From assembly GCA_022646745.1 (NCBI GenBank), contig CP060262.1:3897188-3961187 (forward strand): a DNA stretch of 64,000 bases, in the 5' to 3' direction. The first letter of the stretch is position 1, and the number at the start of each line of letters is the position of its first letter. Made by a program: the position numbers and the translations under genes. The notes beneath the pieces were generated by a model, which was not told the origin of the DNA, made no database searches, and saw only the letters and a program-made list of their open reading frames with translations. The DNA comes from Planctomycetales bacterium. Lineage in GTDB: Bacteria > 4484-113 > JAFGCY01. Positions 1,280 to 59,989 of the stretch are shown here, piece after piece.

Positions 1280-1360
1280 CTCTTGTCCGGCGGATGCGCC
1301 GTTTCACGCACCGGCCGGGGGAGAGAGTTATCAATTCGCCCGCACAACCGGGAGGTTGCC

Positions 1361-30911: not shown

Positions 30912-30984
30912 GACCTGATTCTAGCTCAGCGGGGCACTGTCCCTGAGCTTTCCCTCCCATTACATGACTGGATCACCAACAGTG

Positions 30985-33412: not shown

Positions 33413-33510
33413 GTTTCCCTGCCAGTCCCTGCAAAGATGCCCGTTCAGTTATTGCTCCGGGCAAACAATGGTTCAATTGTAAATCAGGACGCTGCCGGAC
33501 CGTCCCGGGT

Positions 33511-35888: not shown

Positions 35889-35941
35889 GGATGGATTGTA
35901 AGGCAGGGACGCTTACTATGCACAATCGCTGTTCTACCGGC

Positions 35942-38376: not shown

Positions 38377-38399
38377 CTGCTGCAAGCATAGCGCAGAAG

Positions 38400-40042: not shown

Positions 40043-41280
40043 TCAACAGGCTCATTGCTCATATCATGCGTATCACCCGCGGCTGGGTCACTGCCCTGCT
40101 GGATATCCGCCGCAATCCGTTGCCCGCGGCCTGGGGCATGTCCGAATCACGCGGCAATGCGGCCTACCTCAAGCGCTTCGCGATCGGGATGGGCCTGTAC
40201 GGCATTGCCAGCTGGCTTGGGATCATCGCGAGCGCTAGTTACCTGACCGGTGACCAGCTGGCCAACAACAAACAGAGCTTCGTGAACAACTACTTCTTCG
40301 AGCTGGAGGACCTTGGCAACTGGCTGCTGCAGCAGCCCGGCGCTGCCTGGTGCCTGCTGCTGGCCCTGGCCTGGCTGCTTGTAACTTTCCGCAAGGCAAT
40401 CACCACTTCGCTGGGCTTCCTCGACAGCGAACCACGCCAGCAGACGCATATCACCTATGACGACATGCTGGCCTGTTCGCAACTCAACGAGTACGAGGTG
40501 CTGCTCGGTGCGCTTTACTACTGTGTCCGCCTCGTGTTCCTGCCCCTGCTGGCATTCTCAATCTGTTGTGCCTATTCCACATACAGCTTCTTCGAGGCTG
40601 AGATTGCCGGCAATTTCAACGGCGGACTCGCCGGCCTGCTGGCGCACATGTTCGCTGCAGTGCCACTGCTGTTCACCTCCGGCATGCTGGCGGCAATCGC
40701 ATTGTTCCTGCTGACAATCAGCCTGAGCCTGAGCTCCCGCCAGCGTACCGCTCCGCAGGTCGGCGGCTTCCTGCACACCACGGTGCAGTTCCTGCTGATC
40801 GTGCTGGCAGCCTACCTGCTCTACTCGCAGTTCCAGTACTGGGGCTTCACGAATGACGCAGTGTTCCGCGATTTCGGCAACGTGATGTTCAGCATCAGCT
40901 TCCTGGTGACAACCCTGATGCTCTACCTCGCCCGGCGGCTGAACTGGCTGCGCATGCTGCTGCAGCAGGGCTTCCCGGTGCTGCTTGGAGCCTTCCACCT
41001 GTTCTGTGCACTGCCGCTGGCCTATGCCTATACACTGGACAGCGACTGGCTGAACATGCTCAGCATTGCGGCTGACGGCCTGCGTCCACTGAGCCTGTCA
41101 GCCACGGCGCTACAGGCCAGCTGGCTGCAGCAGATCCAACATCCCTACTGGGCGCGGGGCGACCGCGGCTTTGAGTACTACGCGATCGTCTCGCAGCTGA
41201 TCGTGCAGTTGGCCTACCTCGCCCTGTTCGCTGAGTTTGCCCGTGACGCAGTGCGCCGTCGCAAGTGGGGCGTGATGTGA
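40039..41280 (+). CDS. polytopic membrane protein, family A paralog 2
   Basis: ATGA overlap with previous gene; N-terminal RRNPLPAAWGM...; multiple TM helices. Confidence 0.7.
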   Translation: MINRLIAHIMRITRGWVTALLDIRRNPLPAAWGMSESRGNAAYLKRFAIGMGLYGIASWLGIIASASYLTGDQLANNKQSFVNNYFFELEDLGNWLLQQPGAAWCLLLALAWLLVTFRKAITTSLGFLDSEPRQQTHITYDDMLACSQLNEYEVLLGALYYCVRLVFLPLLAFSICCAYSTYSFFEAEIAGNFNGGLAGLLAHMFAAVPLLFTSGMLAAIALFLLTISLSLSSRQRTAPQVGGFLHTTVQFLLIVLAAYLLYSQFQYWGFTNDAVFRDFGNVMFSISFLVTTLMLYLARRLNWLRMLLQQGFPVLLGAFHLFCALPLAYAYTLDSDWLNMLSIAADGLRPLSLSATALQASWLQQIQHPYWARGDRGFEYYAIVSQLIVQLAYLALFAEFARDAVRRRKWGVM

Positions 41281-43913: not shown

Positions 43914-43934
43914 CATGCTCGTCTGTGGGCGGGA

Positions 43935-45344
43935 TTGAATGCCGGGCAGCCCTCGGCTATGATCAAGGAAGAGTACCGGAGATGGCTGGAGCCATCGTAT
44001 CCGGGTGGGAGCAGTATGGCGGTTCGACAACATGAACCTGAAGCAAAGCTGGACGGAGCTGTCCGGCCTGCTGCTGCGCCAGCAAAATTCCCCTCTTCAC
44101 TGCGGCAGGAAAGTGGGAAAGCAGGCAGCTGGCTCGGAGCTGCCCTTGCCATCCGCCAGAATCCATTGCTGAATCTCTGGATCCTGCAGGAGAGGCGCAG
44201 GGCGGAATCCAGAAGCTTCTGGCTGTCAAACCCGGCGCTGCTGGCGGGAACATCAATTGTCAGCGTGCTCGCCTGCATCATACTGGTCCGGCAGTTACTG
44301 GCACTTGTCGAGGCCCGGACCGCCGGTGCAGTCAACCCGATGCCGGCCTCAGCCGCCTTCTGGACTGCAGTCAATGCGATCCTCTGGCTGGCGATAATCT
44401 ACTTCGGCATGCTCTCCATCGGGCGGATCTTCCTCGCGATGCGCAATTCAGTCGCGCTACTGGAGACCGGCCAGGGCAACCAGCGCCTGCGGCTCGATGA
44501 CAACCTCGTGATCACGGAAATGGGCAGCCACCAGATCATCATGGCCCAGATCGCCGACAACCTGCGCCTGGTGCTGCCGGCCAACATCCCGCTGACCCTG
44601 TTGCTCGGGCTGCAGTCCCAGCTCAGCGGCTATGCAAGAATCCTTGACAACCTGCCAGGCGCGATGGACAGCCTGCAGAACCTGCTGCTGATTCCCCTGC
44701 TGTCGATAATCGGCAGCATCCTTGGCACTGTGCTCCTGGGCGCAATCCTGATCGGGGCCGGCCTGCTGGCTGACAGCACCCGCCTGCAGGTCGGGGCGGC
44801 GGTCGGTGTTTTACTGATCCAGGCCTGGCTGTTGTTCCTGATGGCAACCGGCAGGGAGGTATTCAATCTAGGTATGGTTGAGGGCAGCGGCTGGGTGATC
44901 TCAGCGCTTGGGCTGTTCCCCCTGCTTGTAATGATGCTGCCGGTTTTCCTCGCTGGCTTCAGCCCCTTGTTTAGGCGTATCCTGGCAGGCGGACTGATCC
45001 TCTGGATGGGTTTTGCCCTGACCCTGCTGTATGGCATCTGCCTGTTGTCAGACCTGCGCATCTGGCTGGCAGAACCGAATGCTGTCGGGATGGGCCTGCA
45101 GGTCGGAAAGCAGAGCTTGCAGGTCTTCAGTTGCACGCCCCTGACAGGGATTGTCTACCAGCACTTGCAGGCGGTCATCCTCGGCAACCGGCAGGATCCT
45201 GCATTCTTCCTGAGTGTCTGGCAACCTGTCTACACCTATAGCGTCCCGCTGGCAGGATTCCTTCTGCAGGCAGCCTGCATCACCGGAGCCCTGCGCTTTG
45301 CGCTCTTGATGATGGACAAACGGAGGCTTGGCAGCCATGACTGA
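43935..45344 (+). CDS. polytopic membrane protein, family A paralog 4
   Basis: Motif IRQNPLLNLWILQERRRAESRSFWLSNPA then TM helices; start uncertain (TTG 43935 per track; ATG 43959 or ATG 44016, the latter with GGGAG upstream). Confidence 0.65.
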   Translation: MNAGQPSAMIKEEYRRWLEPSYPGGSSMAVRQHEPEAKLDGAVRPAAAPAKFPSSLRQESGKAGSWLGAALAIRQNPLLNLWILQERRRAESRSFWLSNPALLAGTSIVSVLACIILVRQLLALVEARTAGAVNPMPASAAFWTAVNAILWLAIIYFGMLSIGRIFLAMRNSVALLETGQGNQRLRLDDNLVITEMGSHQIIMAQIADNLRLVLPANIPLTLLLGLQSQLSGYARILDNLPGAMDSLQNLLLIPLLSIIGSILGTVLLGAILIGAGLLADSTRLQVGAAVGVLLIQAWLLFLMATGREVFNLGMVEGSGWVISALGLFPLLVMMLPVFLAGFSPLFRRILAGGLILWMGFALTLLYGICLLSDLRIWLAEPNAVGMGLQVGKQSLQVFSCTPLTGIVYQHLQAVILGNRQDPAFFLSVWQPVYTYSVPLAGFLLQAACITGALRFALLMMDKRRLGSHD

Positions 45345-46764
45345 CAACCATTCGGCCATGCCAGTCGAACACTCACCTGCACCTGGTCCTCCGCGGCGCT
45401 TCCTCAGGTTCGACCGTGCACTCAGCCTGCTGCTGTTTGGGCTGCCCGCATTGCTTGCATTCACAGTCTCACTTACTGCAGTTACGGTGCCTGTTGTTCA
45501 TTTCAACAGCGGTGATGAGTTTGCCGACTGGCTGTTCAATGCCGCCCTGCAGGCCCAGCATGATGCATGCTGGCAGGGTGTGAAGGCGAGCCGGGCTGCG
45601 GATAACTGGCTTCCGGAGAGCTACTATTTCAGGTCAAATGCATACTATCGGGAAAGCGTCCTCTTCGGCAACAAGCTGGCAGACGCGATCCAGCAGCAGC
45701 TGGATCTTGACCCGCATGATCCGCGGGTGATCTGGCTGGCTGCAGCTGGAATGCCCATTGATTATCGCGATTATGACAACAGCTTGCAGACAAAGTCGCG
45801 TTTCCTTCTCGAGCAGGATGCAGGGGGGATGCTGGACCGCCAGGGCCTGGAACTGCTGGCATATTTCATCAACCAGGTCGGACCGTTTGAACTGGTTGAA
45901 CAGGAACGCTGGCGGGGACTTAACATTTCCTACTTCGACCTCGGCGATCCATCACAATCTGCCCTGACAGCCGAAGTCCGTGAGCAGGTGACCGATATTC
46001 TGCGGCGGGTTGACAGTCTGCCTCCCGGCAATGCCCAGCACCTTGAACTGCGGTTCACTCAGCTGATGAACAACGACGACTTTGCCGAGGCCCTGGCACT
46101 GCTTGGCCGGTATCCCGGGCTCGAGGCAGCGCCCAGTGACGTTGGCATGCTTGCCAGCCTCGGACTGCAGGAACCGGACGGCCTGGATGACATAACGCGT
46201 GCCCAGCTGCAGTTCTTCGGGCTTGCCAACTGGAACAACACCCTGCGCATGGACTACCAGAAAGTGCAACAGGCCAGCCGTGAGTTGCTGGCAAGCGGCA
46301 GCCTTGACAAGCTTCAGCAGCTCCACGAATTCCTCTGGAAACTCGGAGGGATGGGCAGCCCGGGCGACCAGCTTGGGCACACAGCTGAAATGCTGTCTGC
46401 CTTGCCACCATCTGTCCTGCATGACCCTGCCAACCAGGAATTCCGACTTTCACAGCAGGACATATATGCGCTGACCTCCAATTCGTGGACGGCTAATGAC
46501 CCAGGCCTGCTGCAGCAGGCTGTCCTGCTCCTCGATTACCAACTCAGCGGAGAAAGGCTCGGTCTGTATGGACCGAACCCCATGTACCAGGATTACTACA
46601 CTTCACAGCCAACTCGTTCCAGGATAATCGAACAACTTGGCCCCAATGCTGCAGAACAGTTTGAGCGGATCCGCAATCTCGACTGGACATCCCTTGACCT
46701 CAGCTCAGCCCAGCCTGCTGACTTCGTTGATCCAGCTGAACAGGCCGCCTCGACTGATACATGA
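45337..46764 (+). CDS. bitopic membrane-anchored protein, family B paralog 1
   Basis: ATG 45337 with GGAGG upstream, overlaps end of previous gene; single N-terminal anchor RFDRALSLLLFGLPALLAFTV then ~430-aa W/Y-rich domain. Confidence 0.7.
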   Translation: MTDNHSAMPVEHSPAPGPPRRFLRFDRALSLLLFGLPALLAFTVSLTAVTVPVVHFNSGDEFADWLFNAALQAQHDACWQGVKASRAADNWLPESYYFRSNAYYRESVLFGNKLADAIQQQLDLDPHDPRVIWLAAAGMPIDYRDYDNSLQTKSRFLLEQDAGGMLDRQGLELLAYFINQVGPFELVEQERWRGLNISYFDLGDPSQSALTAEVREQVTDILRRVDSLPPGNAQHLELRFTQLMNNDDFAEALALLGRYPGLEAAPSDVGMLASLGLQEPDGLDDITRAQLQFFGLANWNNTLRMDYQKVQQASRELLASGSLDKLQQLHEFLWKLGGMGSPGDQLGHTAEMLSALPPSVLHDPANQEFRLSQQDIYALTSNSWTANDPGLLQQAVLLLDYQLSGERLGLYGPNPMYQDYYTSQPTRSRIIEQLGPNAAEQFERIRNLDWTSLDLSSAQPADFVDPAEQAASTDT

Positions 46765-48179
46765 GACAATCAGCAACGGGGATGGATACAGCAGGCACAC
46801 AACCTGGAGCGAGGAGCCGCCCACGCTGGCAGCTGATAGACCGCGCGCTGGATCTGCTGGTTGTCGGGCTGCCCCTGCTGCTGGCGCTTGCCTGTGTGAT
46901 TGCCAGTTACGTCGTCAAGCCCTACCGCATGGATACCGGAGATCCCTACCTGAACTGGTATGGCAACCAGCTGATGGACAGTGCCGACCAGGTGCTGGCA
47001 ACGGATCCGCTCCTGCCGGATTACTACAGCACAGGCGACTACTATCTGTTGCCTGATTTCCGCAAGCGCTTCGAGGAAGCACGAACCTCTTTCAGTGGCG
47101 ATCCACGCTACTGGATGGAGTATGCCGATCTGACACGCGCCGAGATCTGGTTCGGAAGTGGTGACAACTATTCCGAACAGGACTCGGAAGCGGCTTATGA
47201 GGCAGTGATGCGTGAGGGCCTGTCCAGCCCCGGCGCCAGCCCTGAAATGTTCATCCCGCTTGAGTGCCGCCCGATCGAGACCTCAGTGCTGGCGGACGGT
47301 GTGACCCGCGGCAACAAGGAAGGCCGACCGAATTTCCTCTGGAACCATCCGGAAGAAGTGACAGCAATGCTTGAGCAGGCCGGACGGCTGCCGGTGCAGG
47401 ATACCGTCAGCCGCCTGCTGCAGGCAACATACTGGAGCTGCGGCGGGGAGTACGGGCGCGCCCGTGAACAGCTGCTGGCAATCCGGGACCAGCCGGGCCC
47501 TTCCCTGCCTGACATGAATGAGCTGATGATCAAGTCGGCAGCCAGACCAAACACGGCGGTCATGGCCAGCCGGGGCTGGTCCATGCAGTATCCGTCCAGC
47601 ATTTACGTGGTGAATTCTGACCTGCGCAGCGGACTGGACGAGCTGGCGGAACAGGCCTGGCTGGCCGGAGACTACGAGGTGATTGACATCCTGCGCCAGT
47701 CCATCATCGATGGCAGGGGCGCTTCCGGCACGATCCTCGGCCAGCTGATGACGACTGTCAACCTCGGCAAGGTTGACAGCCGCATCTACAAGGTCACTAC
47801 CGACCCTGCTGAACTGTCAATGATGCTAGAGCTGCGTGCCCGCAAGAATGTGTGGCGAGACAAGGTCCGCTCAACAATCGGGCGGGAACTCAGTCCCTGG
47901 GTGGTCGGACGCTGCACGCTGGAAGGTGCCCTCAGCGGTGGACGGGGCTTTCACAGCGGATACGGTATTGCCTATGGCCGTCTGCTTCAGGATGAGTATG
48001 CCGACCTGCTGGGCATCCAGCCCCAGTGGGATGCGGTTGCGAATTTCAGTTACAGCAAATTGGCCTTCCCAGACGGCTGGACACCATCTGAATCGGACCT
48101 GCGGATTGCCGAGGGAGAAATTGCCAACAATCCCGGCGAGCGCCTGTACCGCGAGGTTTCCGACGGTGAGCAACCGTGA
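46761..48179 (+). CDS. bitopic membrane-anchored protein, family B paralog 2
   Basis: ATGA overlap; anchor IDRALDLLVVGLPLLLALACVIA paralogous to preceding gene. Confidence 0.7.
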   Translation: MRQSATGMDTAGTQPGARSRPRWQLIDRALDLLVVGLPLLLALACVIASYVVKPYRMDTGDPYLNWYGNQLMDSADQVLATDPLLPDYYSTGDYYLLPDFRKRFEEARTSFSGDPRYWMEYADLTRAEIWFGSGDNYSEQDSEAAYEAVMREGLSSPGASPEMFIPLECRPIETSVLADGVTRGNKEGRPNFLWNHPEEVTAMLEQAGRLPVQDTVSRLLQATYWSCGGEYGRAREQLLAIRDQPGPSLPDMNELMIKSAARPNTAVMASRGWSMQYPSSIYVVNSDLRSGLDELAEQAWLAGDYEVIDILRQSIIDGRGASGTILGQLMTTVNLGKVDSRIYKVTTDPAELSMMLELRARKNVWRDKVRSTIGRELSPWVVGRCTLEGALSGGRGFHSGYGIAYGRLLQDEYADLLGIQPQWDAVANFSYSKLAFPDGWTPSESDLRIAEGEIANNPGERLYREVSDGEQP

Positions 48180-49384
48180 GTGCCAACTGGACCAGCGCAA
48201 TCCGTGGCCTGCGTGACAATCCCCTGCCGGCACTGTGGCAGCTGCAGGAACTGCGCCAGCACGGGCAGCGCAGCCGCTGGCTGTCCAGCCCCGGCTATAT
48301 GCTGCTTGCCATCCTGGTCAGTGCGCTGGCCTGTTACCTGCTGCTGCTGCAACTCGGAATGGCAGGTGCGGTCTGGCAGGAGGGAGCGCACCCGGTGATT
48401 CGCCACAGCCTGCGCGGGATGGGCTTTGGCGTGTCCCTGGCTTTCACCGGAGCCATCTCCTTTCTACTGGCAATGGCCCGGCTGCACCATGGAATCCTGT
48501 TCTGCGGCAGCCTGCTGGCAATGCGGGACAGCCGCCGGCGCTGGGCCTTTGATGAGGTTGTGGCATCAACTGAGCTTGGCAACCGGGAGATCATCGCCGC
48601 GGCGATCTGGCATTCGCTGCGCCGCGTGATGCCACCACTCGCACTCAGCCAACTGGTGTTTTCGGTGATGTCCGGCATCTGGGTGGCTGACATGCTGCAT
48701 GACCACTCCCTCCCGGATGCAGCATGGCGCTGGCTGCTGCCCCTACTGTTCCTGCTGGGCATGCTGCTGCTGTCCACGCTGGCTGTCGCCACCCTTTGCG
48801 CCCTCTCGATCTCCACCAGCAGTCCTGACCAGCACCCGGCCCAGCCAATGCTGCTGGCAGCGAATGCCTACCCGCTGCAACTGCTGATGCTGGCGGCCCA
48901 GCTTCTGTTGCCGATCTGGCGTCCAGATGAGTATTACACCGAAGCCCCATCTTTACTGGTGGTGAATCCACTGGATGTCGTCTCGCTGGGGTTCGGAATG
49001 CTGATGCCCGTCATCATGGTCCTGCTGCTGGAACTGATGTGCCGGGCTGGCAACACCCGAAGTTATGCGGCCTTTGCCCTGCTGCCGGTGGTCGGCCTGC
49101 TGCTTGCCTTTGGCTGGGGCGTGATGTCAATTGTCTATGACGAGCTGCTGTCCTCCACATATCCGCTGGATGGACCCCTTTTCAGCCTCGCATCCAACTG
49201 GTGCATCTTCCCGTTGTACCTCAGCTATCCACTGCAGGACCTGGCCCGCAACGGTATTCCAGGCTATGCGATTCACTGGATGAGTCTCTGCCTGTTTCCC
49301 GTACATTTGCTCCTGCTCCTAGGTGCCCTTTACAAATTTGCGCAACGAGCAGCCGGGAACCTGGACCGCGAACTGCGGGTCTGA
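48176..49384 (+). CDS. polytopic membrane protein, family A paralog 5
   Basis: GTGA overlap; N-terminal RDNPLPALWQLQELRQHGQRSRWLSSPG; about 8 predicted TM helices. Confidence 0.7.
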   Translation: MSANWTSAIRGLRDNPLPALWQLQELRQHGQRSRWLSSPGYMLLAILVSALACYLLLLQLGMAGAVWQEGAHPVIRHSLRGMGFGVSLAFTGAISFLLAMARLHHGILFCGSLLAMRDSRRRWAFDEVVASTELGNREIIAAAIWHSLRRVMPPLALSQLVFSVMSGIWVADMLHDHSLPDAAWRWLLPLLFLLGMLLLSTLAVATLCALSISTSSPDQHPAQPMLLAANAYPLQLLMLAAQLLLPIWRPDEYYTEAPSLLVVNPLDVVSLGFGMLMPVIMVLLLELMCRAGNTRSYAAFALLPVVGLLLAFGWGVMSIVYDELLSSTYPLDGPLFSLASNWCIFPLYLSYPLQDLARNGIPGYAIHWMSLCLFPVHLLLLLGALYKFAQRAAGNLDRELRV

Positions 49385-49476: not shown

Positions 49477-52400
49477 ATGCGAACTGGTACTGCAGGCCAT
49501 AAAAGAATGTGGCCAATTGTCGTGCTCGCCCTTGCATTGAGTGCCTGCGGCGGCAACATGGGTTCGGGCATTGTCCCTGGACCGGCACAGATAAGAAATG
49601 AAACCGCACCGGTCTATCGCAATGCGATTGGCGAATCCGAAATCGGCACACTGAATGACTGGCAGCGAGCGCTGCTTGCCGACCCAGGCTGGAATGAAGC
49701 CCCTGCTCCGGTTGAGCGGGATGGGTTTAACGCGCTGCCTGCTCCGAGCACTGAACTGCTATTGGAGCTGCTCCAGCAGCAGGCAGTTGCAGGCATAGAT
49801 CAAGCTGGATTCGTGCGTGGCACTTCCGCGCTTGACCCGGTTCCGGTCGGCGCGTACAAGCCTGGCGATGTTGATGTTAATGGCATTCCCGCTTTCGGCT
49901 GCAATGCCGACCCGGCAATGATCGACATTTACCACATTGAGGATGTGATTGGCAATTACAGCCTGGATGCTGATCTGCAATTGCAGTCACCAGTTGGTTA
50001 CGTTATGTATGGCGTACCTACAGTCAACCATTTCAACAAGCATGGAGACTCAGCCTCGATTCCGGCTGCCATTTCACAGGTGCTGGCCCAGCAGGACGAC
50101 CAGTCCCAGAACATTGCGATCAGCAGCATTGCTTATCTCGCTGCGCAGGATTTCTCCGTCTCACCCGGTGAGGGCAGTGGCCCTGGAGGCCCGAATGACT
50201 GCGGCCTGGCGGCATACAGTATCCGCAATGCCTACTGGATGAGCTGGAATGAGAAATCCTTCGCTCTGCCTTCGGGCCAGACCACTGCGCTATTCAACAT
50301 TTTGCCTGGTCCGTTGGATGAAGCACAGACCGGGCTAACCAACCCCATCACTTCCACCACGGCGGGCCAGCAGCCCTTCCTGTTCGGTTCCTGGATCGAG
50401 CATTATGGCAAGTCCTACATCGTCGGCATAGAATCTGCCAACAGCGGTTGCCAGATGTTCGATGACATTGCCAACACCGAATGGCGCCACAGGGTGATCG
50501 GTGGCGACCAGCCCTACCCGAACATCCTGCACAACCCGCTGTACGGCATCCTTGCGGAACGCTGGCAGCAGTCAGCCATTCCGGATACGGAGGAATGGAA
50601 CAGCCAGCTCGGCTGGCCCGTGGCCCGTCCCTTTGCCTACAACAATGGAGCGCAGCTGCTCAGTGCGGACGGCCCCTACTATGCATTTGGACAGTTCTTC
50701 GAGCGGGGATTCATCTGGTGGCTGGACTACGACCAGCAGGCCAATCCGACAGCAAGCGACCGGGCAATCCTCTACACTTTCGATGGCAGCAACACATTCT
50801 GCGATGGCACGTTTACGCGCAGCTACCCTTACCTGCATTACAACAATCAAGCAAGTGCCCCGCTTGCCGCTGACCTGCTGGTGGACCAGTATCTCGCGGG
50901 TGGCTCCGACTGGCGCCAGATCAGCCAGCAGCCTGATGGCCGCCTGCTGCGGGTTCCCTGGACTGACGAGGGAGCCAGCCAGCGCAGTGCCACTGTCCGC
51001 GCCCTTGCCAACCCCAGTGGAGGGGTGACCATCAACGGTGACGACATCGGCCATCCGGAATGGGGCAAGGGCCTGTACCGCAGCTGCACATGGCTGTGGC
51101 AGGATGGCACTGTCACCCCTGCCGGCATGGATTACGACCCGGCGCAGTTTGACATGCAGCACACCTACCTTGGCGACGGAGCTGGCATTGAAGCCATCCG
51201 CCGCATCAGGGCGCAGGTGGTGGATGCCGACGGCAACATCGCCTATGTGGACAGCCTGCCGCTGCAGATCGGCGACGGCAGCCCGGGGGCCGCCCCGGCA
51301 CTGAGCGTGCTGCGGGCTGACAACGGCATGTTCCCGGATGGCTACGAAGCCCTGATTGATGATCTCGGTGAACTCGGCCTGCCCTTCAGCACCCGCAGCT
51401 GGGAAGCGGGTATCGAACAGCAACTCGCAGACGAGGGCTGCCAGCTGGCAATCTGGTACGACGGCGGACCGGGCAGCCAGGCTGAACTTGGAAACACACA
51501 GGCCGGCTGGACCGCTGGGGAAAGGGACTCACTGATCGGCCTGCTGGAGAAGGGCATTGACGTGCTGCTGCTCAGCCAGGATGTCGCTGACAACCCGGAC
51601 CCCAACCCGGGAAACTCATGGACAGACCGCTTCGGTATGCAGCTGCTGCCCGGCGGCCAGTCCGGCACCGGCCTGCAGGGTGCATGGGGGCAGTTGCCCG
51701 GTGGCCGGATTGCCGATTTCGGCGGCGGATGGCTTCCCTCGTCCGCCCAGTACATGTCTGCCGCTTCACTGGCTTCGCTCGAGGCGATCTGTGGCGCCGT
51801 GGAACGCGGCTCCGCCGATGATGGTACCCAGCCGATGCTTGTGTCAGTCGACCCCGCCCTGCCCGTCTGCGGCATTGGCAGCGCCACCAACTGGCCGGGA
51901 GCCAGCCCCGCATTCACTGCGGGCAGCTTCCTGTCTTCAACATCCACAGGTCCGGCCCAGGCCCTGCTGAGCTGGGGCAGCAGCGCAGCTCCGCATTCCA
52001 TTGATGGCAACCTGCCTGACCCGGTCATCGCCGATGGCAATGCGCACCTGTGGGTCTATGGCCTCAGCTGGGCAGCCAGCTCTCCCGTAGGCTACCAGGG
52101 CAGCGATCGCGTGCCCGTTGCCAGGAGCAGGATGCTTCAGAATATCCTGAGCTGGCTGGACAATGATTCCCGCTACTTTGACCCGCTGCGACCACGTGGC
52201 TATTCAGGTGAGCCGGAAATCCTCTCGGTCACGCCATACCTGATCCAGTCAGACGGGCAGATCACTCCCGGCTCGACTTCACATACTGGAGTTGACTATC
52301 CGGACCCGAGCGGCAGCGATGTGCTGCGCAGCAGCCCCAACCTGCCGGATGAGAAGCACCTCGTTGTCAGTCCGGAGCATGACTCGGATGAGGACGGCAT

Positions 52401-53574
52401 CAATGCCAATGACCTTGACCTGCAGTTCCCCTTCTACGCCTACATCACCTGGGATGACAGCAAGGGGCAGGCAAACGGCGTGATCGAACCTGAAGAGATC
52501 CTCGACATCAGCTATGGCGGCCTGCTGCTGAAGGACGATATTGACTGGCAACGGGCCAATCCCAATGCCGGCAATTATGTCCAGCCGAGCCAGCTCAACA
52601 TTCAGCGTCCAGTGGCCGGTTACTACCTGTCATTCACGGGCGACAGCGGCGATGAGCTGCGCGCTTCCTATGGCTCTGCAGCGCCGCAACTTGTTACAAC
52701 TCAGTACAGGCCAAAGCTGCTTGTGGAGGCAGTTGCCCACTGGCCGGCAGATGCAGCCTACGGTGGCCAGACACCAGTGCTGCGCTGGAGTATGTTCCCT
52801 GGCCATAAGGTCCAGTCTCGCAACTACATCACCGGCACCAGCTGGGTTGATGGATATGCCGGTGAATCCCCCATCCCCTGGGGCTTCTTTGTCGGAACGA
52901 ACGATATCGACCCCGGCATGAAGAATTTCAGCGATGCAGATGTACTTCGCCTGCATGGAGATTTCAGCCATGTCGGCGATGGCAATGGCCGCAGCATGCT
53001 GTTTGATTACGCTACGGTACTGGCCTTTGACGGTGACCTGGATGATGACAATGCTGCCGGCACGGCAGACAAGATTCCGATTCGTGTCCGCCTGATCACT
53101 GATTACGAAGCATATGGCAAGTATGCAGCTGAGGGCGGGACCTGGCCTGACCAGTTCCCCCCGGCGGACAGCTTCATTGAAGGAGGCTGCTATGTATCCC
53201 TTGCGGGCAAGGGCAACAGCTGCATGGTTGTGATGGACAATCCGGAGAAGTACGATCCCCATGAGCTGATTACCAAGGATGAAGATGGCCAGTATAGATT
53301 TGACGTCGAACTGCACTTCATCGTCGACTGCGCACCCGGACCGCTGGATGTTGATTTGGACTGGAATTACGATGGAATTGCATGGGGCAACTCCGGAAAC
53401 ACGCAGTATGTAGGCGTTTTCCCAGTCGAAGGCGAACTTGATGAAACAGTGAATGTGGATTTCACACCGGCAGGTGGACCTGGTACCTACTATTTCTCAA
53501 TCAAGGTTTCTGATGGTTCCGTACCTTCCCAAACTGCAACCTACACCTGGCCGGTTCCAGTTGTAATAGAGTAG
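49477..53574 (+). CDS. giant surface lipoprotein with LGFP-like repeat, paralog 1
   Basis: Lipoprotein signal MRTGTAGHKRMWPIVVLALALSAC; LGFP-like segment QLGWPVARPFAYNNGAQLLSADGPYYAFGQFFERGFIWW; shares many blocks with 54019-59040. Confidence 0.8.
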   Translation: MRTGTAGHKRMWPIVVLALALSACGGNMGSGIVPGPAQIRNETAPVYRNAIGESEIGTLNDWQRALLADPGWNEAPAPVERDGFNALPAPSTELLLELLQQQAVAGIDQAGFVRGTSALDPVPVGAYKPGDVDVNGIPAFGCNADPAMIDIYHIEDVIGNYSLDADLQLQSPVGYVMYGVPTVNHFNKHGDSASIPAAISQVLAQQDDQSQNIAISSIAYLAAQDFSVSPGEGSGPGGPNDCGLAAYSIRNAYWMSWNEKSFALPSGQTTALFNILPGPLDEAQTGLTNPITSTTAGQQPFLFGSWIEHYGKSYIVGIESANSGCQMFDDIANTEWRHRVIGGDQPYPNILHNPLYGILAERWQQSAIPDTEEWNSQLGWPVARPFAYNNGAQLLSADGPYYAFGQFFERGFIWWLDYDQQANPTASDRAILYTFDGSNTFCDGTFTRSYPYLHYNNQASAPLAADLLVDQYLAGGSDWRQISQQPDGRLLRVPWTDEGASQRSATVRALANPSGGVTINGDDIGHPEWGKGLYRSCTWLWQDGTVTPAGMDYDPAQFDMQHTYLGDGAGIEAIRRIRAQVVDADGNIAYVDSLPLQIGDGSPGAAPALSVLRADNGMFPDGYEALIDDLGELGLPFSTRSWEAGIEQQLADEGCQLAIWYDGGPGSQAELGNTQAGWTAGERDSLIGLLEKGIDVLLLSQDVADNPDPNPGNSWTDRFGMQLLPGGQSGTGLQGAWGQLPGGRIADFGGGWLPSSAQYMSAASLASLEAICGAVERGSADDGTQPMLVSVDPALPVCGIGSATNWPGASPAFTAGSFLSSTSTGPAQALLSWGSSAAPHSIDGNLPDPVIADGNAHLWVYGLSWAASSPVGYQGSDRVPVARSRMLQNILSWLDNDSRYFDPLRPRGYSGEPEILSVTPYLIQSDGQITPGSTSHTGVDYPDPSGSDVLRSSPNLPDEKHLVVSPEHDSDEDGINANDLDLQFPFYAYITWDDSKGQANGVIEPEEILDISYGGLLLKDDIDWQRANPNAGNYVQPSQLNIQRPVAGYYLSFTGDSGDELRASYGSAAPQLVTTQYRPKLLVEAVAHWPADAAYGGQTPVLRWSMFPGHKVQSRNYITGTSWVDGYAGESPIPWGFFVGTNDIDPGMKNFSDADVLRLHGDFSHVGDGNGRSMLFDYATVLAFDGDLDDDNAAGTADKIPIRVRLITDYEAYGKYAAEGGTWPDQFPPADSFIEGGCYVSLAGKGNSCMVVMDNPEKYDPHELITKDEDGQYRFDVELHFIVDCAPGPLDVDLDWNYDGIAWGNSGNTQYVGVFPVEGELDETVNVDFTPAGGPGTYYFSIKVSDGSVPSQTATYTWPVPVVIE

Positions 53575-53583
53575 CAACCTACC

Positions 53584-53625
53584 AATCATATCAGTTTCAC
53601 GGGATCTCGTGAAACTGATATGATT
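53584..53625. repeat. perfect 18-bp inverted repeat (hairpin), 6-nt spacer, immediately 3' of giant lipoprotein 1
   Basis: AATCATATCAGTTTCACG (53584-53601) / CGTGAAACTGATATGATT (53608-53625); possible terminator or protein-binding palindrome. Confidence 0.6.
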
Positions 53626-54018
53626 AAAGGTACTTGAAATTTGATTAATGTGTACGTATACTGTTTCCATAGCTTCGGCTGCGCTCTGGGAGCCAGCTGG
53701 AAGACACGCGCAATTGAGGAAGTAGGAATTGCTTGATCAGCATTCGAACTTTCGGATCACAGGGGCTGCTGTGAACCTCGCAGTCCTTTGCGCGCATATT
53801 TACTACCCCGGCACCGCATGCAATTGCCGTGCTGCGACACATGCTTCCCAGTACTCCGGCCGTCCTGGACCGGTCGAGATAATCCGGCTGAAACATACTG
53901 CATGAGGAGGTATCTGATGTCCAGTCGTGGCAGCAGTGTTGCCACTCGAAACCCTGCCTACCGGGCGGGTCAATTGCGCTTATTAATTATTTCCATACCA
54001 ACATCTATAGGAGTTATC

Positions 54019-57000
54019 ATGAAGACTCATGTGAACTGGTGTAAGCATCTCGGGCTAACGCTTGTGGCGCTTACGGTAGTCTTCGTAGCAGCTTCCTGCG
54101 GTGGTAGTGGTAGCAACGGGCTCACTTCAAATGTTGAGCTGGGAACTACCACTTCTGTTGCCCCGGGCAATGATGTCCGCGGCAATGTTTCCGCTGAGAT
54201 GACCGTCTCTGAGAACGAGATCGGCCAGCTCAGTGCGGAGCAGCAGGCTCTGCTTTCAGACGCGGGCTGGAACCAGCCCTACATCGTCCCCAAGGCCGGC
54301 ACCCCGATCCAGGGCCCGAGCCATGAGATGCTGATGGCACAGCTTCGTGAGATGGCTGAGCGCGGCGTCGAGATGCTGCCCCGCGGCGTCGAGGGAGAAG
54401 GCACGAAGGGAGCCAGCTGGCTTGACCAGCGCGGCTTCAACCCGGGTGTTGACAGTGGCCTTGTGAAGGGCCAGTACAAGCCCGCCGACACCGGCGCCAA
54501 CGGCGTGCCGGACTTCGGTTGCAACGCCTCCGGTGCACTGATGGCTGACAACGGCCAGTCCGACATCGAGGACGTGATCTTCGCCTACGGCGGCAGCATG
54601 CCGGCCCAGGCGATCAGCTGGGTGGCTGAGGGTCTTTCGACCATCAACCACTTCAACAGCGTCGGTGGAGGTGGTGACGATGCGTACACCGCCGTTTACC
54701 AGCTGTTCGCTGACAGCGAGACCGCGAACCCGAACAACCAGGGCAACAATGACATCGGTGAGATCGGCTACCGTGCCGACCTCGGCCCATATGGCGTCGG
54801 TTACGGCCAGGGCAGCGGCCCCAGCGGCACGCTGTGCGACGGAACCGCCTACGGTGTCCGCAATGCGTTCTGGATGACCTTCAACGAGAAGTTCTTCGCC
54901 CTGCCGAGCGGCCAGGCGACTGCCCTGTACAACGTGCTGATCGCCCCCAGCGGTGATGAGGGTGCGGACCAGGTCAGCCCGATGGACACCTCCGCGAACT
55001 TCCAGACCTTCTACTTTGGCAACGTGTCCTCCTGCTATGGGGATGCGATGATCGTCGGCATCAACGCCGCTGACAGCGGTTGCGACATGTTCGACGAGGC
55101 CTCCAATGCGCCGTGGCAGGACCGTACGGCGGATGGCAACAGCTACCCGAACATCCTGCACAACCCGATCTTCGGCGTGATCCTGGCCCGCTGGGCCGGC
55201 GGCAACGCCAACTCGGACAGCCAGTTCTTCGGCGACGGCAGCTTCCCGAGTGCGGCAAGCATCGTCGGCTGGCCCGTGGCCCGTCCGTTCGCATACAACA
55301 ACGGCGCCGCGCTGCTCAATGCCAACGGTGCCTACTACGCCTTCGGCCAGTTCTTCGAGAAGGGTTTCATGTGGTGGATCGACTACGACCAGAACAGCAA
55401 CCCGACCGCGAGCGACGAAGCGCAGATGTACGTCTACGATGGCAACAACACCTTCTGCGAGGGTGAGTACTCCAAGGTCGAGCCCGACGTGTTCTACGGC
55501 GGCAGCGGCGACCTCGGTGTCGGCGTGACCGTGGACGGCGTGCGCTACGGTGCCGGCGACTGGTCCGCCCCGCAGCTGTCCGACGACGGTACCTATTACC
55601 AGATCGGCATGCTGCTGGACGAGAACACCGGCATCAGCAGCGTGACCATCGCTGCCAGCGCGCACGGCTTCGGCGGTGTGACGGCTGATGGCCTTGACAT
55701 CGAGCACCCCGAGTGGGGCGCCTGCCTGTACAAGCACAGCACATGGTCATGGCGTGACGGTACGGTCACGGCAGCCGGCACGGCTTTCGATCCGAGCCAG
55801 TTCGCCCGTACCCACACCTACAGCAGCAATGCGATCAAGACCAATGTCGAGGGTGTGTACACGATCCGTAACCAGGTCGTGGACGCCGATGACAACATCG
55901 CCTACGGTGACAGCCTTCCGATGCACCTCGGACACGGCGGCGCCGGTGGTGGCGGTGGCGACACCGAAGTCTGGGTCATCCGCAACGACGGCGGTGACTT
56001 CCAGCTCAACCTCGACGCCCTGACCGGCGACCTTGACGCCCTTGGCGTTGGCTACAGCGTGGTCGACTACAGCGCAACCGTCGCTGACGACTTCGCCGCC
56101 AACCCGAACGCGAAGGTCGCGATCTGGTACCGTGGTGGACCGGGTGGCGCGGGTGAGTCCGCGACCTACACCACCGCCTGGACCAGCGGTGAGATGGACA
56201 ACTACATCCAGCTGATGAGCGACGGCTTCGGCGTGATGCTGATGAGCCAGAACCACGGCTACGATGGAGACCTGTTCTTCACCAACGGCTGGAGTGGCAT
56301 CTACGGTTATGCGACCCTGCCGGCCTCCGTCCCGGATGCCGACCGCCGCATGCCCTGGGCCTCCAGCCTGTGCACCGATGACGGTATCGGTTTCGGTGGT
56401 TCGCTTGGTTTCATCCCGACCGCCCCGAGCAACTTCATCGGTAACCCGAGCGGCGCTAACTTCGGTGCCGACGGTACCAACGCCGCGGAGCGCTACACCG
56501 GTAGTGGTTCCTCGGGTGAGCTGCCGATCAGCTTCGGCATGGCAACCGGCCGCCAGTACTGCGGTATCGGTTACTACAGCTCCTTCTTCGCGGGCTCCTG
56601 CGCAGGTCCGGCCTTCCGTGCCGGTATCGGCCACCAGCCCAACGCGCTTGGCTTCGACCTGGGCTTCCTGTCCTGGGGTAACAGCCAGGCCCCGGATGCC
56701 AACATCGGCTTCTTCCCGAGCTACAGCCACAGCTTCGGCACCGGCAAGGTGTGGAACGTTGGCTACAGCTGGGCAGGCACCAGTGTGACGGCTTCCGCTT
56801 CCGGCACGATGGACCGCGCCGACCTGCTGAACAACATCCTCGGTTGGCTGGATGACAGCCTGACCTTCGGTGGTGGCGGCGGCGGTGGCGCCGGCTTCGA
56901 GGAGTACGATGGTCCTCCGGAGATCGTCTGCGTGACCCCGATCGCCTGGGACAAGGTGAACGGCGCCGTGACGCAGGGTACCGCCGGTGTGGGTGGCCAG

Positions 57001-59040
57001 AACTACCCCGACCCGAACGGTTCCAACGTCTTCGGTCCGGATGTGACCCCCGGCTTCGATTACGCTGTCGAGTACGACACCGGCGTCCGTACCCCGGGCG
57101 ACGATGACGGCGGCGTGAATGGCAACGACATGGACTTCCAGTTCCCGTTCTACGGCTTCCTGCAGTGGGACGACACCCTCGGCGCCATCCCCGGCGACGT
57201 GGAGGCTGCTGAGATCATCGATGTCAACTACAGCGGTATCGCCCTGAGCGACATCTCCGCTGACTGGACCAAGTTCTCCGCCCCCTACGGTGGTGTGTTT
57301 GATCCTTCCGCCCTCGGCCTTGGCCGCGCAGCCGCGTGGTTCCTGACCGAGACCGACACCTTCGGTAACATCAACACCGCCAGCTACGGCGATGCCTTCG
57401 GCCCGAACCTGGTGTTCAACAACGACACCGACCTGGTTGCCACCGAGGCGATCGCGCACTGGGCACAGGGCACGATGTACGGTGGCTCCCCGGCGTACCT
57501 CGCCTGGGCGATGTATCCCGGCCACAAGTCCGTCCAGTACGACAACTCCGACACCCCCGTGGGTTACTACGGTGAGGGTGGCATCCAGTGGTACGAGTTC
57601 ATCGAGGACCACGACATCCAGGTCGGACGTGACCTGTATGCCTACCTGCGCAGCGACTACTCCTTCACCACCCCCGGTGAGGGCCGCACCGTGGACTTTG
57701 ACTACGCAGTGGTCAAGGGCTGGGATGGCGACCTGAACCGTAACGGCGTGATCAGCGAGGCCGCTGACAAGTTCCCGGTCCGTGTCCGCTTCTTCACCGA
57801 TGTGGATGCCTACGATGATTACTTCGATGACCTGAACGGCTACCCGAACTTCTGGCCTGATGGCGACTCCTTCATCGAGGGTGGTTGCTACATGGTGGAC
57901 GAGGGCGACCCGAACTATCCGGTTGCAATCTTCGATGATCCGGACCTGGATGATCCGATGGCTACCGTCACCGGTTCCGGCCCGGCCTATGATGTGACCC
58001 TGAGCTACATCATCGCCAACGGCTTCCCGAACTACGACATGAGCCTTGACTGGAACTACGACTTCATCTCCTGGGGCAACAGCGGCAACGTGATCAATGA
58101 CTATGTCAGCCACAATGCCAACGGTGCCTGGAGTGATGTCGTCAGCGTCGACCCGACCGCTGCCGGCGGCGATGGAGACTACTTCTTCGCCCTCAGGGTC
58201 GATGACGGTGACGTGCCCTCCGCCAGCGCTAACTTCTTCTGGCCCGATGCGGTGCCGCTGAAGCCCGGCCTGAGCTATGCGATCGTCGATGACAACCTCA
58301 ACGCCCTCGACGACAGCCCGGCCCAGATGCTGGCTGCGATTGACAGCTTCCTGCCCGGCCAGACCGTGATCCCGCGCGCCAGCGTCACCGCCGGCAGCGA
58401 CCTCTACGGTTATGACCTGGTGATCTGGCTCACCGAGCATGAGTGGTATGGCCTTGGTAGCCCGGGTATCCTGGCTGCCGAGATGACGATCCTCAAGGAC
58501 TACCTGAACAATGGTGGTTCCGGCGGGACCGGTGGTAACCTGATCCTCTTCATGCCCGGCGAAACCGCCTGGGAGACCTTCGACGTCGGTCTGGACATGC
58601 ACATCAACTACATGGGTGGTGGTACGTCCTTCATGAACGAGCGTCACCAGTTCGACAGTGAGTGGTACAACCAGCACATCACCAACGCCGGCCTGCAGAA
58701 CGGACCCGGTGGATCCGGCATGATGATGGTTGACCATTACAGCCAGGTCGGCCCGAACCCGGGTGTCGATCCCTGGTACACCAGCGGTTACTTCGACACT
58801 CCGGCCCTGACTGCCGGCGCCGTCCAGGCGTCCTGGCTGTTCAGCACGGACCGTTCCGACGTGACCAAGTTCGACAAGAACGGCGGCGGCACCCCTGGTG
58901 GTGTCTGCGTCTGGGTTGGCCACTACTTCAAGGGCTGCATCCCCTACTTCGGCGGTGACATCTTCACCGGTGTTGCCGGAACGCAGGGCCAGTACATGCA
59001 GAACCTGATCAACTGGACCGATCCGACCCTGCTTCCGTAG
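54019..59040 (+). CDS. giant surface lipoprotein with LGFP-like repeat, paralog 2
   Basis: ATG 54019 with AGGAG upstream; lipoprotein signal MKTHVNWCKHLGLTLVALTVVFVAASC; LGFP-like segment IVGWPVARPFAYNNGAALLNANGAYYAFGQFFEKGFMWW; track ORF from 53788 is an upstream extension. Confidence 0.8.
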   Translation: MKTHVNWCKHLGLTLVALTVVFVAASCGGSGSNGLTSNVELGTTTSVAPGNDVRGNVSAEMTVSENEIGQLSAEQQALLSDAGWNQPYIVPKAGTPIQGPSHEMLMAQLREMAERGVEMLPRGVEGEGTKGASWLDQRGFNPGVDSGLVKGQYKPADTGANGVPDFGCNASGALMADNGQSDIEDVIFAYGGSMPAQAISWVAEGLSTINHFNSVGGGGDDAYTAVYQLFADSETANPNNQGNNDIGEIGYRADLGPYGVGYGQGSGPSGTLCDGTAYGVRNAFWMTFNEKFFALPSGQATALYNVLIAPSGDEGADQVSPMDTSANFQTFYFGNVSSCYGDAMIVGINAADSGCDMFDEASNAPWQDRTADGNSYPNILHNPIFGVILARWAGGNANSDSQFFGDGSFPSAASIVGWPVARPFAYNNGAALLNANGAYYAFGQFFEKGFMWWIDYDQNSNPTASDEAQMYVYDGNNTFCEGEYSKVEPDVFYGGSGDLGVGVTVDGVRYGAGDWSAPQLSDDGTYYQIGMLLDENTGISSVTIAASAHGFGGVTADGLDIEHPEWGACLYKHSTWSWRDGTVTAAGTAFDPSQFARTHTYSSNAIKTNVEGVYTIRNQVVDADDNIAYGDSLPMHLGHGGAGGGGGDTEVWVIRNDGGDFQLNLDALTGDLDALGVGYSVVDYSATVADDFAANPNAKVAIWYRGGPGGAGESATYTTAWTSGEMDNYIQLMSDGFGVMLMSQNHGYDGDLFFTNGWSGIYGYATLPASVPDADRRMPWASSLCTDDGIGFGGSLGFIPTAPSNFIGNPSGANFGADGTNAAERYTGSGSSGELPISFGMATGRQYCGIGYYSSFFAGSCAGPAFRAGIGHQPNALGFDLGFLSWGNSQAPDANIGFFPSYSHSFGTGKVWNVGYSWAGTSVTASASGTMDRADLLNNILGWLDDSLTFGGGGGGGAGFEEYDGPPEIVCVTPIAWDKVNGAVTQGTAGVGGQNYPDPNGSNVFGPDVTPGFDYAVEYDTGVRTPGDDDGGVNGNDMDFQFPFYGFLQWDDTLGAIPGDVEAAEIIDVNYSGIALSDISADWTKFSAPYGGVFDPSALGLGRAAAWFLTETDTFGNINTASYGDAFGPNLVFNNDTDLVATEAIAHWAQGTMYGGSPAYLAWAMYPGHKSVQYDNSDTPVGYYGEGGIQWYEFIEDHDIQVGRDLYAYLRSDYSFTTPGEGRTVDFDYAVVKGWDGDLNRNGVISEAADKFPVRVRFFTDVDAYDDYFDDLNGYPNFWPDGDSFIEGGCYMVDEGDPNYPVAIFDDPDLDDPMATVTGSGPAYDVTLSYIIANGFPNYDMSLDWNYDFISWGNSGNVINDYVSHNANGAWSDVVSVDPTAAGGDGDYFFALRVDDGDVPSASANFFWPDAVPLKPGLSYAIVDDNLNALDDSPAQMLAAIDSFLPGQTVIPRASVTAGSDLYGYDLVIWLTEHEWYGLGSPGILAAEMTILKDYLNNGGSGGTGGNLILFMPGETAWETFDVGLDMHINYMGGGTSFMNERHQFDSEWYNQHITNAGLQNGPGGSGMMMVDHYSQVGPNPGVDPWYTSGYFDTPALTAGAVQASWLFSTDRSDVTKFDKNGGGTPGGVCVWVGHYFKGCIPYFGGDIFTGVAGTQGQYMQNLINWTDPTLLP

Positions 59041-59073
59041 TCACGAGCCTGATCAACTGAACTGATCAAACTG

Positions 59074-59107
59074 CCCCGGGGCCCTGTGCCCCGGGGTTTC
59101 CTTTTTT
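59074..59107 (+). terminator. rho-independent terminator after giant lipoprotein 2
   Basis: GC-rich stem CCCCGGGGC / GCCCCGGGG with 5-nt loop followed by TTTCCTTTTTTC. Confidence 0.75.
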
Positions 59108-59344
59108 CTACACGTATAAGCTCCTTGCGTTGCCCAGTGCAGAAGGGCCAACTTCTCTAGTCCCAGACTGGTCTCAGCTCAGTTGGCAAACCTCAGACCC
59201 TCCTGAAACTTCTCGGAATTCTACTAATTTTCGAATTTTTTCGAAATATCTGTTTAGAACCTCCCGGGGGCGGGAATTACAGACGGTTTGGAAAAGGAAG
59301 CAGGAACTTCCCCGAACTGAATAATCTAATCTGAGGTGACTGAC

Positions 59345-59989
59345 ATGGAAGCTAAGAAGAACATCAACGGAAACGACAACAAGCAGAACAGTGGCGTGAT
59401 CATCGTGATCCGCAACCTGATGGCCCTGGTGGTCATGCTGGCCCTGGGCCTCCTGGCCTCCTGCGGTGGCGGCAGCTCAGCGATGGCTGAGCTGGATGCC
59501 CCGGCGGATGACGCCAAGGCGGTGGACTACACGATGGCCCCCTCATTGGATGAGGTGGTCGCGGACCGCGAGGCCAGCTCCAGCTGGTACGTCGCCACCA
59601 GCGATGCGGCCTACATCGACGGCATCGACTACCTCTACCAGCTGCTGACGGACGGCAACGGCAAGTACCAGTTCGTGATGAAGGTCACCAACAACTCCAG
59701 CCAGGCCCGCCACATCACCTACAACAGCACCAAGCGCGCCGACTTCTCGATCGTGAAGAACGGCCAGGAGCTGTACCGCTGGAGCGAGGGCCGCTTCTTC
59801 GGGTTCGTCTTCGAGACCCGCACGCTGAGCCCGTACCAGACCTTCGAGTACAAGGCTGACTGGAACGGACGTGACCGCCACGGCAACCCGATCAGCGGCA
59901 ACGTGATGGCCAACGGCTTCCACACAAGCGTCAGCAACCCGGCCAGCCTCGGTCAGGTGGCCTACCTGAACGGCAAGGTCAGCAACTAG
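59345..59989 (+). CDS. BsuPI-like (intracellular proteinase inhibitor fold) lipoprotein
   Basis: Lipobox LLASC; C-terminal region with BsuPI-like pattern (YQFVMKVTNNSSQARHITYNSTKRADFSIVKNGQELYRWSEGRFF...TLSPYQTFEYKADW); ATG 59345 with GAGG upstream. Confidence 0.55.
   Translation: MEAKKNINGNDNKQNSGVIIVIRNLMALVVMLALGLLASCGGGSSAMAELDAPADDAKAVDYTMAPSLDEVVADREASSSWYVATSDAAYIDGIDYLYQLLTDGNGKYQFVMKVTNNSSQARHITYNSTKRADFSIVKNGQELYRWSEGRFFGFVFETRTLSPYQTFEYKADWNGRDRHGNPISGNVMANGFHTSVSNPASLGQVAYLNGKVSN

Follow-up and report, generated by a model that had tools for sequence, protein, structure and literature searches.

Two adjacent giant paralogous lipoproteins with a conserved base and a variable distal end in a Planctomycetales bacterium

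Introduction

Here we analyze two adjacent genes, termed A and B, of a Planctomycetales bacterium (assembly GCA_022646745.1, contig CP060262.1, positions 3,897,188 to 3,961,187). These 64,000 nucleotides (nt) are referred to as the window and numbered from 1, and unless stated otherwise all features lie on the forward strand. Genes of this family take up about 9 kb at this locus and as much as about 25 kb in relatives. Their hosts are uncultured and poorly known, and databases leave the genes without annotation. A first-pass annotation of the locus, made from the sequence alone, had singled out the pair as giant paralogous lipoproteins with LGFP-like repeats and no visible catalytic motif.

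Results

Gene A (49477..53574), defined from the list of open reading frames (ORFs) and a BLASTP comparison with B, encodes a 'headless' protein of 1365 amino acids (aa) that ends after a second immunoglobulin (Ig)-like domain; the length is counted from the ATG at 49477, in a frame that is open over 49462/49477-53574. Gene B (54019..59040), defined from the ORF list and 24 homologs, encodes 1673 aa including a C-terminal 'head' domain, counted from the ATG at 54019 in a frame open over 53788-59040; a GGAG ribosome-binding site lies 8 nt upstream of this start, which is kept as ATGAAGA in orthologs. The GC content of the two genes is 0.59-0.63, with 60% for the whole window, and both proteins are acidic (isoelectric point about 4.1) and enriched in Gly, Asp, Asn and aromatic residues.

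A and B are collinear paralogs, with a similarity far above chance (BLASTP, 37% identity over 1435 columns, 764 bits, E = 0.0): the alignment spans A from its signal peptide to its very end, beyond which B extends by about 257 residues. Indeed, the long shared blocks noticed earlier (NHFN, WPVARPFAYNNGA...FE.GF.WW.DYDQ, QVVDAD.NIAY and EGGCY) are all present in both proteins and in the same order, and the sizes and lipoboxes agree as well. The predicted signal peptides end in the lipobox at 49477..49548 in A (MRTGTAGHKR...ALALSAC24, then GG) and at 54019..54099 in B (MKTHVNWCKH...VFVAASC27, then GG), and with a positive N-region, a hydrophobic core and a lipobox ending in Cys both N-termini have the hallmarks expected of bacterial lipoproteins. 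The Cys-Gly of the lipobox (C27 G28 in B) is invariant in 26/26 aligned family members. Both genes are under purifying selection, with a ratio of nonsynonymous to synonymous substitution rates (dN/dS) of 0.14 for B against its ortholog in locus L007 and of 0.24 for A against L001. The orthologs of A (P0001-P0003) are 53-90% identical to it, none having a C-terminal domain.

Relatives of the pair are rare. A search of 5.8 billion protein clusters recovered 4 relatives for A and 24 for B, to which a profile search added just three fragments, while a HMMER profile of the N-module and the middle module (both described below) run against 1.84 billion representatives retrieved 124 proteins at E <= 1e-3, about one in two of which has the N-module. 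The relatives are all annotated as 'hypothetical proteins' and stem from metagenome-assembled genomes (MAGs), labelled by their depositors as 'bacterium isolate UBP7 HKST-UBA01/03', 'AC1.30' or 'Planctomycetales bacterium'. Scanned against Pfam, NCBIfam and PADLOC, A and B gave no match above threshold, those to Big_9 (E 0.12, in A) and TY-Chap3 (E 0.01) being judged noise. The profile of the whole-family alignment had 0 matches at E <= 10 among PDB sequences, and phmmer searches of the C-terminal domain and the third module of B against PDB returned chance matches only. The family is new and uncharacterised, built largely from known folds. In the resources searched we found no description of the family, of its domain combination, of the EGGCY junction or of an LGFP-like base outside Actinomycetota; the general kind, namely large modular surface proteins that vary at the tip and are encoded in paralog arrays, is familiar.

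To delineate the domains, the structure of B was predicted with AlphaFold2 (AF2) in two pieces (residues 55-645 and 640-1673) from a 28-sequence family alignment. The first model (B 55-645; predicted local distance difference test (pLDDT) 77, predicted template-modelling score (pTM) 0.82) represents the N-module and divides into three parts: N1 (54199..54828, aa 61-270), a helical plus beta subdomain with the invariant polar residues E65, D81, S133, C168, N210 and Q228; N2 (54829..55428, aa 271-470), an LGFP-like region with a recognisable unit at aa 383-458; and N3 (55429..55938, aa 471-640), a PKD/FN3-like Ig domain. Foldseek backs the Ig/FN3 part with a probability of 0.97-0.99, and the structure matches of this model, from the one scoring 7.2 onward, are Ig, PKD and FN3 modules. 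In Pfam, the gathering score for PKD (PF00801 / PF18911) was not reached, A having only the Big_9 match mentioned above; in relative P0010, the region homologous to the Ig domain scores 21 bits against PKD_4, with a cut-off of 27.

An LGFP unit comprises about 54 aa, starting with a helix that leads through an L-G-F/Y-P turn to an antiparallel sheet of 3-4 strands, and the LGFP domain of MytA is reported to bind peptidoglycan-arabinogalactan (PMC11299179). In the model, B 383-458 contains the helix, a VGWP turn (LGWP in the family consensus) and the strands. We took the LGFP sequence of MytA from a PDB search and converted its five repeats into a hidden Markov model (HMM) and a profile. When the N-module of the family was compared with this profile using hhalign, the best match was B 386-458 (GVILARW...VGWPVARPF...FFEKGFMWWIDYDQ), covering columns 1-49 of 54 with P = 0.003-0.005 and two insertions of 10-15 residues, and falling exactly on the WPVARPF...FEKGFMWW block. 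The equivalent unit of A (50530..50736, aa 352-420, LYGILAERWQ...LGWPVARPF...FFERGFIWWLDYDQ) aligns to this block of B, the module being 53% identical between the two. The predicted layout resembles that of a unit of the LGFP domain of Corynebacterium glutamicum mycoloyltransferase A (PS1/MytA; PDB 6SWZ, 6SX4; PF08310), i.e. a helix, L-G-[FW]-P and a hairpin ending in F-E-x-G-x-I-[YW]-W. In MytA, however, the units form a tandem C-terminal array on a mycomembrane enzyme, while in A and B the unit is placed near the N-terminus of a lipoprotein from a non-actinobacterial MAG, without tandem sequence repeats; nor does hhalign detect internal sequence repeats in the N-module. We conclude that the base has an LGFP-like fold with one recognisable unit and is not a member of the Pfam LGFP family. 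The original LGFP idea is hence partly supported, by the fold and a weak profile similarity and not by Pfam or Foldseek, while the plural 'repeats' was overstated; the block makes up about 5% of each protein.

The second model (B 640-1673; pLDDT 68, pTM 0.46, in line with a beads-on-a-string arrangement) separates into four parts. The first of these, the middle module (55951..56898, aa 645-960), is an alpha/beta domain with a pLDDT of about 90 over its first 110 residues, and the model has a flavodoxin-like fold of the class-I glutamine-amidotransferase (GATase1) type, resembling ThuA and a GH42 domain. Neither this domain nor the PKD-like one had been recognised in the first-pass annotation. 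Its structure matches include 7vkw (beta-1,2-glucosyltransferase, 13.8), 4jqs (ThuA-like, 12.5), 3tts (GH42 beta-galactosidase, 12.5), 3rht (Planctomyces GATase1-like, 11.9) and 5fms (IFT52, 10.8); Pfam detects neither ThuA, GATase nor Glyco_hydro_42M in A or B. The GGPG turn after the third strand of non-catalytic GATase1-like domains (4JQS, 1T0B, 3RHT, GH42 3TTS/4OIF, IFT52 GIFT 5FMS) is also found in the middle module, which in contrast to these is about 120 residues longer, lacks the triad, and is either part of a lipoprotein stalk or the final domain of a PKD/dockerin-like protein. The latter arrangement, without the rest of the family architecture, occurs at the C-terminus of about 25 other proteins, whose N-terminal parts are PKD arrays with dockerin-like segments and which we take to be extracellular. 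Among them, P0053, P0055, P0058, P0060, P0063, P0070, P0075 and P0089 have a homologous middle module (E 1e-72 to 1e-32 against the profile), and differ from A and B in having N-terminal PKD arrays instead of the N-module, the third module and the EGGCY junction. The PKD protein of the window itself (1283-5950) has no similarity to the middle module and was ruled out as a further bearer.

The third module (56908..57918, aa 964-1300), beta-rich in the second model and with a DLNxNG loop, ends in the motif F-I-E-G-G-C1290-Y (57877-57891), which by alignment corresponds to aa 1235-1239 of A (53179..53193, Cys1238). It is followed in B by a second Ig-like domain (Ig2; 57919..58266, aa 1301-1416), a semi-variable predicted beta sandwich with a PKD-like G.Y...V.D motif, and by the hypervariable C-terminal head domain of 257 aa (58267..59037, aa 1417-1673). 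In the model, the head displays a beta-alpha-beta pattern, and hhalign gives a weak, in-register alignment (P = 0.03) to the four beta-alpha units at the start of the middle module, so that the head is probably a second flavodoxin-like alpha/beta domain.

The most informative result is a gradient of conservation along the protein. As computed per module from the family alignment, B and P0005 are 95% identical in N1, 91% in N2, 96% in N3, 100% in the middle module and 91% in the third module, falling to 61% in Ig2 and 33% in the C-terminal domain; against P0006, the corresponding values are 98%, 100%, 98%, 100%, 87%, 57% and 17%. More generally, Ig2 of B is 53-61% identical to relatives that are 90-100% identical upstream, and its C-terminal domain 16-33% identical to those of P0004, P0005 and P0006. 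In a sliding window, identity breaks just past F-I-E-G-G-C-Y (B 1285-1291). EGGCY, the 'GGCY' block of the first-pass annotation, thus marks where the hypervariable C-terminal region begins. In other genomes, pairs located on one contig (P0005/P0006, P0008/P0009, P0011/P0012, P0015/P0016 and P0021/P0023) exhibit the same gradient. Taken over close relatives and tandem paralogs, an identity of 90-100% before EGGCY gives way to about 55% and then to 10-30% in the C-terminal domain.

An all-against-all BLAST comparison of the regions after Ig2 separates at least six unrelated C-terminal types, with none in A and P0001-P0003. The type of B is common only to P0005, P0011 and P0012, at about 30% identity, and neither it nor most other types match a Pfam family. 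Other family members end in PQQ-like or DUF5122-like propellers. Among the relatives, a recognisable enzyme domain is confined to P0024 (1786 aa, from a Logan assembly). This protein aligns to B 10-634 and then directly to B 960-1294, skipping the middle module, and directly after FVEGGCYVMD continues with a Peptidase_C11 (clostripain) domain and SBBP propeller repeats.

The same pattern is visible in the DNA of tandem arrays. Locus L011 (3697-25718) holds three tandem genes for 1905-aa proteins and then one for a 1313-aa relative. Between the tandem genes, identity is 100% over the initial 2.4 kb and still 95-99% as far as 3.9 kb, only 40-55% between 4.2 and 5.1 kb, and 91-94% once more at the very 3' terminus; the DNA upstream of each copy is unrelated (32-46%). 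The variable stretch is thus a cassette with homology on both sides. L010 (2933-26381) similarly contains three tandem genes, for proteins of 2124-2166 aa. Contigs of short-read MAGs stop inside B-like genes in L001/L005, L006, L007 and L009, with three such contigs in HKST-UBA01, as is expected if a genome has several near-identical 5' regions. This suggests that several near-identical B-like copies per genome break the assemblies, since tandem copies have 100% identical 5' regions and a sharp break at EGGCY.

The intergenic region between A and B was also analyzed. It spans 53575-54018 (444 bp, GC 0.495), congruent with the AT-richer spacer of about 445 bp with an 18-bp palindrome described before. 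The palindrome is an inverted repeat (53584..53625) beginning 10 nt past the stop codon of A, with 18-nt perfect arms, a 6-nt loop and no T-run; its conservation is lacking in L001 and partial in L002, by which we ruled it out as a conserved regulatory element, and it may simply end the A transcript. Downstream, a scan identified a promoter-like site for B, TTGAAA-17-TATACT (53634..53662), kept in four orthologous spacers and found once in the window, against 0.01 expected by chance. It is followed by a conserved leader of about 355 nt (53663..54018) with conserved blocks and hairpins. The aligned spacers (window 53626-54018, L001 14106-14512, L002 14182-14590, L004 9431-9860 and L007 9446-9870) have a mean column identity of 74%, whereas identity to A is only 53-61% for the A proteins encoded just before the spacers of L001 and L002. 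RNAalifold predicts 86 pairs for the leader, and compensatory changes occur in 14 of these; no Rfam family matches the leader, a hit to mir-255 being dismissed as noise, and a covariance model of its 3' part matches only the orthologous spacers upstream of B-type genes and a weak copy in L006. From such sequence comparisons, the leader may be a previously unrecognised cis-regulatory RNA.

Within the leader, an in-frame ATG lies at 53917, 34 codons before the B start and with GAGGAGG ahead of it (53905-53919), in a frame that is open in L001 and L002. Read by eye, the conservation around it is at the nucleotide level, since L002 reads the conserved nucleotides in a different frame; the ATG could represent an alternative start, a leader ORF or chance. 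B is followed by a terminator-like hairpin (59073..59107; 10 pairs, 9 of them G-C, then a T-run).

Discussion

Aggregated, these data lead us to favour, tentatively and with somewhat less than an even chance of being right, a model in which A and B are lipid-anchored stalks of the cell envelope with a wall- or glycan-binding base and an exchangeable, recombining distal head. We are led to it by the invariant lipid anchor, the wall-binding-type fold beside this anchor, the Ig-like spacers, the GATase1-like module, a type of domain that extracellular glycosidases employ non-catalytically and that PKD/dockerin-like proteins share, and the variability that rises away from the anchor. Both proteins would be tethered in the envelope by their lipidated N-termini and probably be exposed at the surface as a chain of domains. 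The membrane-proximal base would consist of the conserved N-module, with its LGFP-like fold and PKD-like Ig domain, and attach to the wall or to an envelope glycan, in a manner that we infer to be comparable to the LGFP domain of MytA. The stalk would then be formed by the GATase1-like middle module, the beta-rich third module and Ig2, and the far end by an exchangeable head: the 257-aa alpha/beta domain in B, a propeller, a clostripain-type peptidase with a propeller, or another domain in relatives, and none in A. By analogy with the propellers and the C11 peptidase of relatives, the heads may bind or degrade external polymers, and more generally would bind or process external macromolecules. 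Finally, the identical 5' parts of tandem paralogs may supply the homology by which recombination swaps heads downstream of EGGCY.

Several observations weigh against this model. The N-module does not recover its proposed template directly: MytA is not among the Foldseek matches of the first model, the top-ranked of which are meaningless at a template-modelling score (TM) of 0.1, Pfam LGFP (PF08310) gives no match at E <= 1 with the whole proteins or at E <= 10 with the isolated block and the family consensus, and the HMM of the MytA repeats scores a non-significant 0-5 bits against the family, although its weak matches cluster on the LGWPV block. Furthermore, no fold is assigned to N1 and the third module, among whose roughly 550 residues an active site could lie hidden, the model of the B head has a pLDDT below 50 over half its length and is of low confidence, and a periplasmic location instead of surface exposure is conceivable. 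A and B themselves are also an old pair, at 37% identity and with no sign of recent exchange, the mosaicism being seen mainly in relatives.

The proposed exchange has parallels in the recombining variable surface lipoprotein families Vsp/Vlp of Mycoplasma and Vls of Borrelia, whose lipoproteins are likewise encoded by arrays of paralogs that are identical at the 5' side and vary distally. The A/B-type proteins are, however, ten times larger and composed of globular domains rather than short repeats, no invertase or silent-cassette machinery was seen, and their hosts are free-living sludge-type bacteria, with no host immune system to face. We consider it possible, though doubtful, that the stalk model extends to a full head-swapping system, in which arrays of giant lipoproteins keep kilobases of identical 5' DNA as recombination substrate and exchange unrelated distal domains just after F-[IV]-E-G-G-C-Y, thereby providing programmable surface heads for binding or degradation on a stalk with an LGFP-type wall anchor outside Actinomycetota, the B-type gene being under a structured 5' leader of about 355 nt.

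An alternative is that A and B are secreted or envelope enzymes, whose core (the amidotransferase-like domain, N1 or the third module) would be a hydrolase or transferase acting on glycan or peptide, with the other domains serving in targeting. Invariant polar residues are indeed present both in N1 and in the middle module (E713, Q744, E824, S885 and N939), one relative, P0024, has the C11 peptidase, and an M6-like peptidase and a BsuPI-like inhibitor lipoprotein are encoded nearby. However, the catalytic Cys-His-Glu triad is absent from the middle module, as none of its conserved residues (which also include D657, D671, W703, Y704, G706, G707 and W758) is a Cys or His. The domain that it matches in GH42 and ThuA-like structures is not their catalytic one. 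In agreement with the earlier impression that catalytic motifs are lacking, HExxH is absent from both proteins, and GxSxG is found 0 times in A and as two G-rich strings in B that are not conserved in the family. The emergence of a known enzyme family in profile searches had been put forward as what would overturn the original description, and sequence and profile searches of Pfam, NCBIfam, PADLOC and PDB returned none. We therefore regard an enzymatic core as unlikely.

Equally improbable, in our view, is that A and B act as periplasmic or trans-envelope partners of the membrane proteins encoded upstream, within a clade-specific envelope machine for transport or tethering. As noted previously, the pair follows a membrane operon on the same strand: seven same-strand ORFs (38864-49384) precede A, and the last membrane gene ends 92 bp before it. 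Five of the seven are paralogous polytopic membrane proteins with an N-terminal NPLPxxWxLxExR motif (starting at 38864, 40039, 41265, 43935 and 48176). The order from membrane genes to giant lipoprotein is kept in L001, L002 and L004, the first two also preserving A followed by B and the last having a B-type gene with a B-type leader directly after the operon and no A; an LGFP-like wall-binding fold would moreover suit a periplasmic tether. On the other hand, the distant members in L003, L010, L011 and L012 are devoid of the operon, so that its linkage to the giant genes is clade-specific, B has its own conserved promoter-like site and leader, and the hypervariable distal region is hard to square with a fixed machine. 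The membrane proteins, finally, match no family, the seven ORFs being without a hit even at E <= 10; a role as ABC-2/GldF-like permeases pairing with a GldG/GIFT-like domain was rejected, with no Pfam support at this threshold.

The architecture is also reminiscent of polymorphic toxins (Rhs, CdiA and MafB type), with a large conserved N-terminal part (1290 aa), a junction motif, EGGCY, that would act as demarcation for a delivered effector, unrelated C-terminal domains past it (one type being a C11 peptidase), and tandem or orphan copies, with an ankyrin-repeat gene after P0004 and the BsuPI-like inhibitor gene after B. A role in contact-dependent competition is nevertheless very unlikely. 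It was dropped as the leading explanation since the tandem copies of L010 and L011 follow one another with no small gene called in between. In addition, B is set apart from the BsuPI-like gene by a strong terminator and a gap of 296 bp, the C-terminal types comprise propellers and alpha/beta domains and no Pfam toxin families, a semi-variable Ig domain lies between motif and head, A-type proteins form a headless subfamily, and PADLOC gives no match.

Returning to the stalk model, the domain map of a wall-binding-like base, a stalk and an exchangeable head allows testable hypotheses on how these bacteria attach to, or feed on, external polymers. If true, an LGFP fold outside actinobacteria would widen the range of a wall-binding module with a single solved structure. 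The break of conservation at EGGCY together with the 100% identical tandem 5' regions is a clear case of cassette-like diversification, making this a well-delimited, uncharacterised family with a clear evolutionary signature.

Neighbouring genes

Among the upstream membrane paralogs, the 882-aa product of 41265-43913 is fused to a soluble domain, the C-terminus of which resembles by eye that of a single-pass protein encoded at 45328-46764 (...LDWT.LD...); a second single-pass protein is encoded at 46761-48179. Further upstream, on the reverse strand, 28504-38472 contains eight related tandem ORFs of about 400 aa in four adjacent pairs, with PQQ-like propeller matches in Pfam for the two that were scanned. 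One member of each pair is membrane-anchored, and the partners have a lipobox in three cases and an ordinary-looking signal peptide in the fourth (34689-35888). In L001 and L002, too, the locus is flanked by these propeller genes.

Downstream of B and past the strong terminator, 59336-59989 encodes a small lipoprotein (...LLASCGG) in which Pfam identifies a BsuPI proteinase-inhibitor domain (E 4.6e-18), and the M6-like peptidase, which has Big_7 domains, is encoded at 24987-28493.

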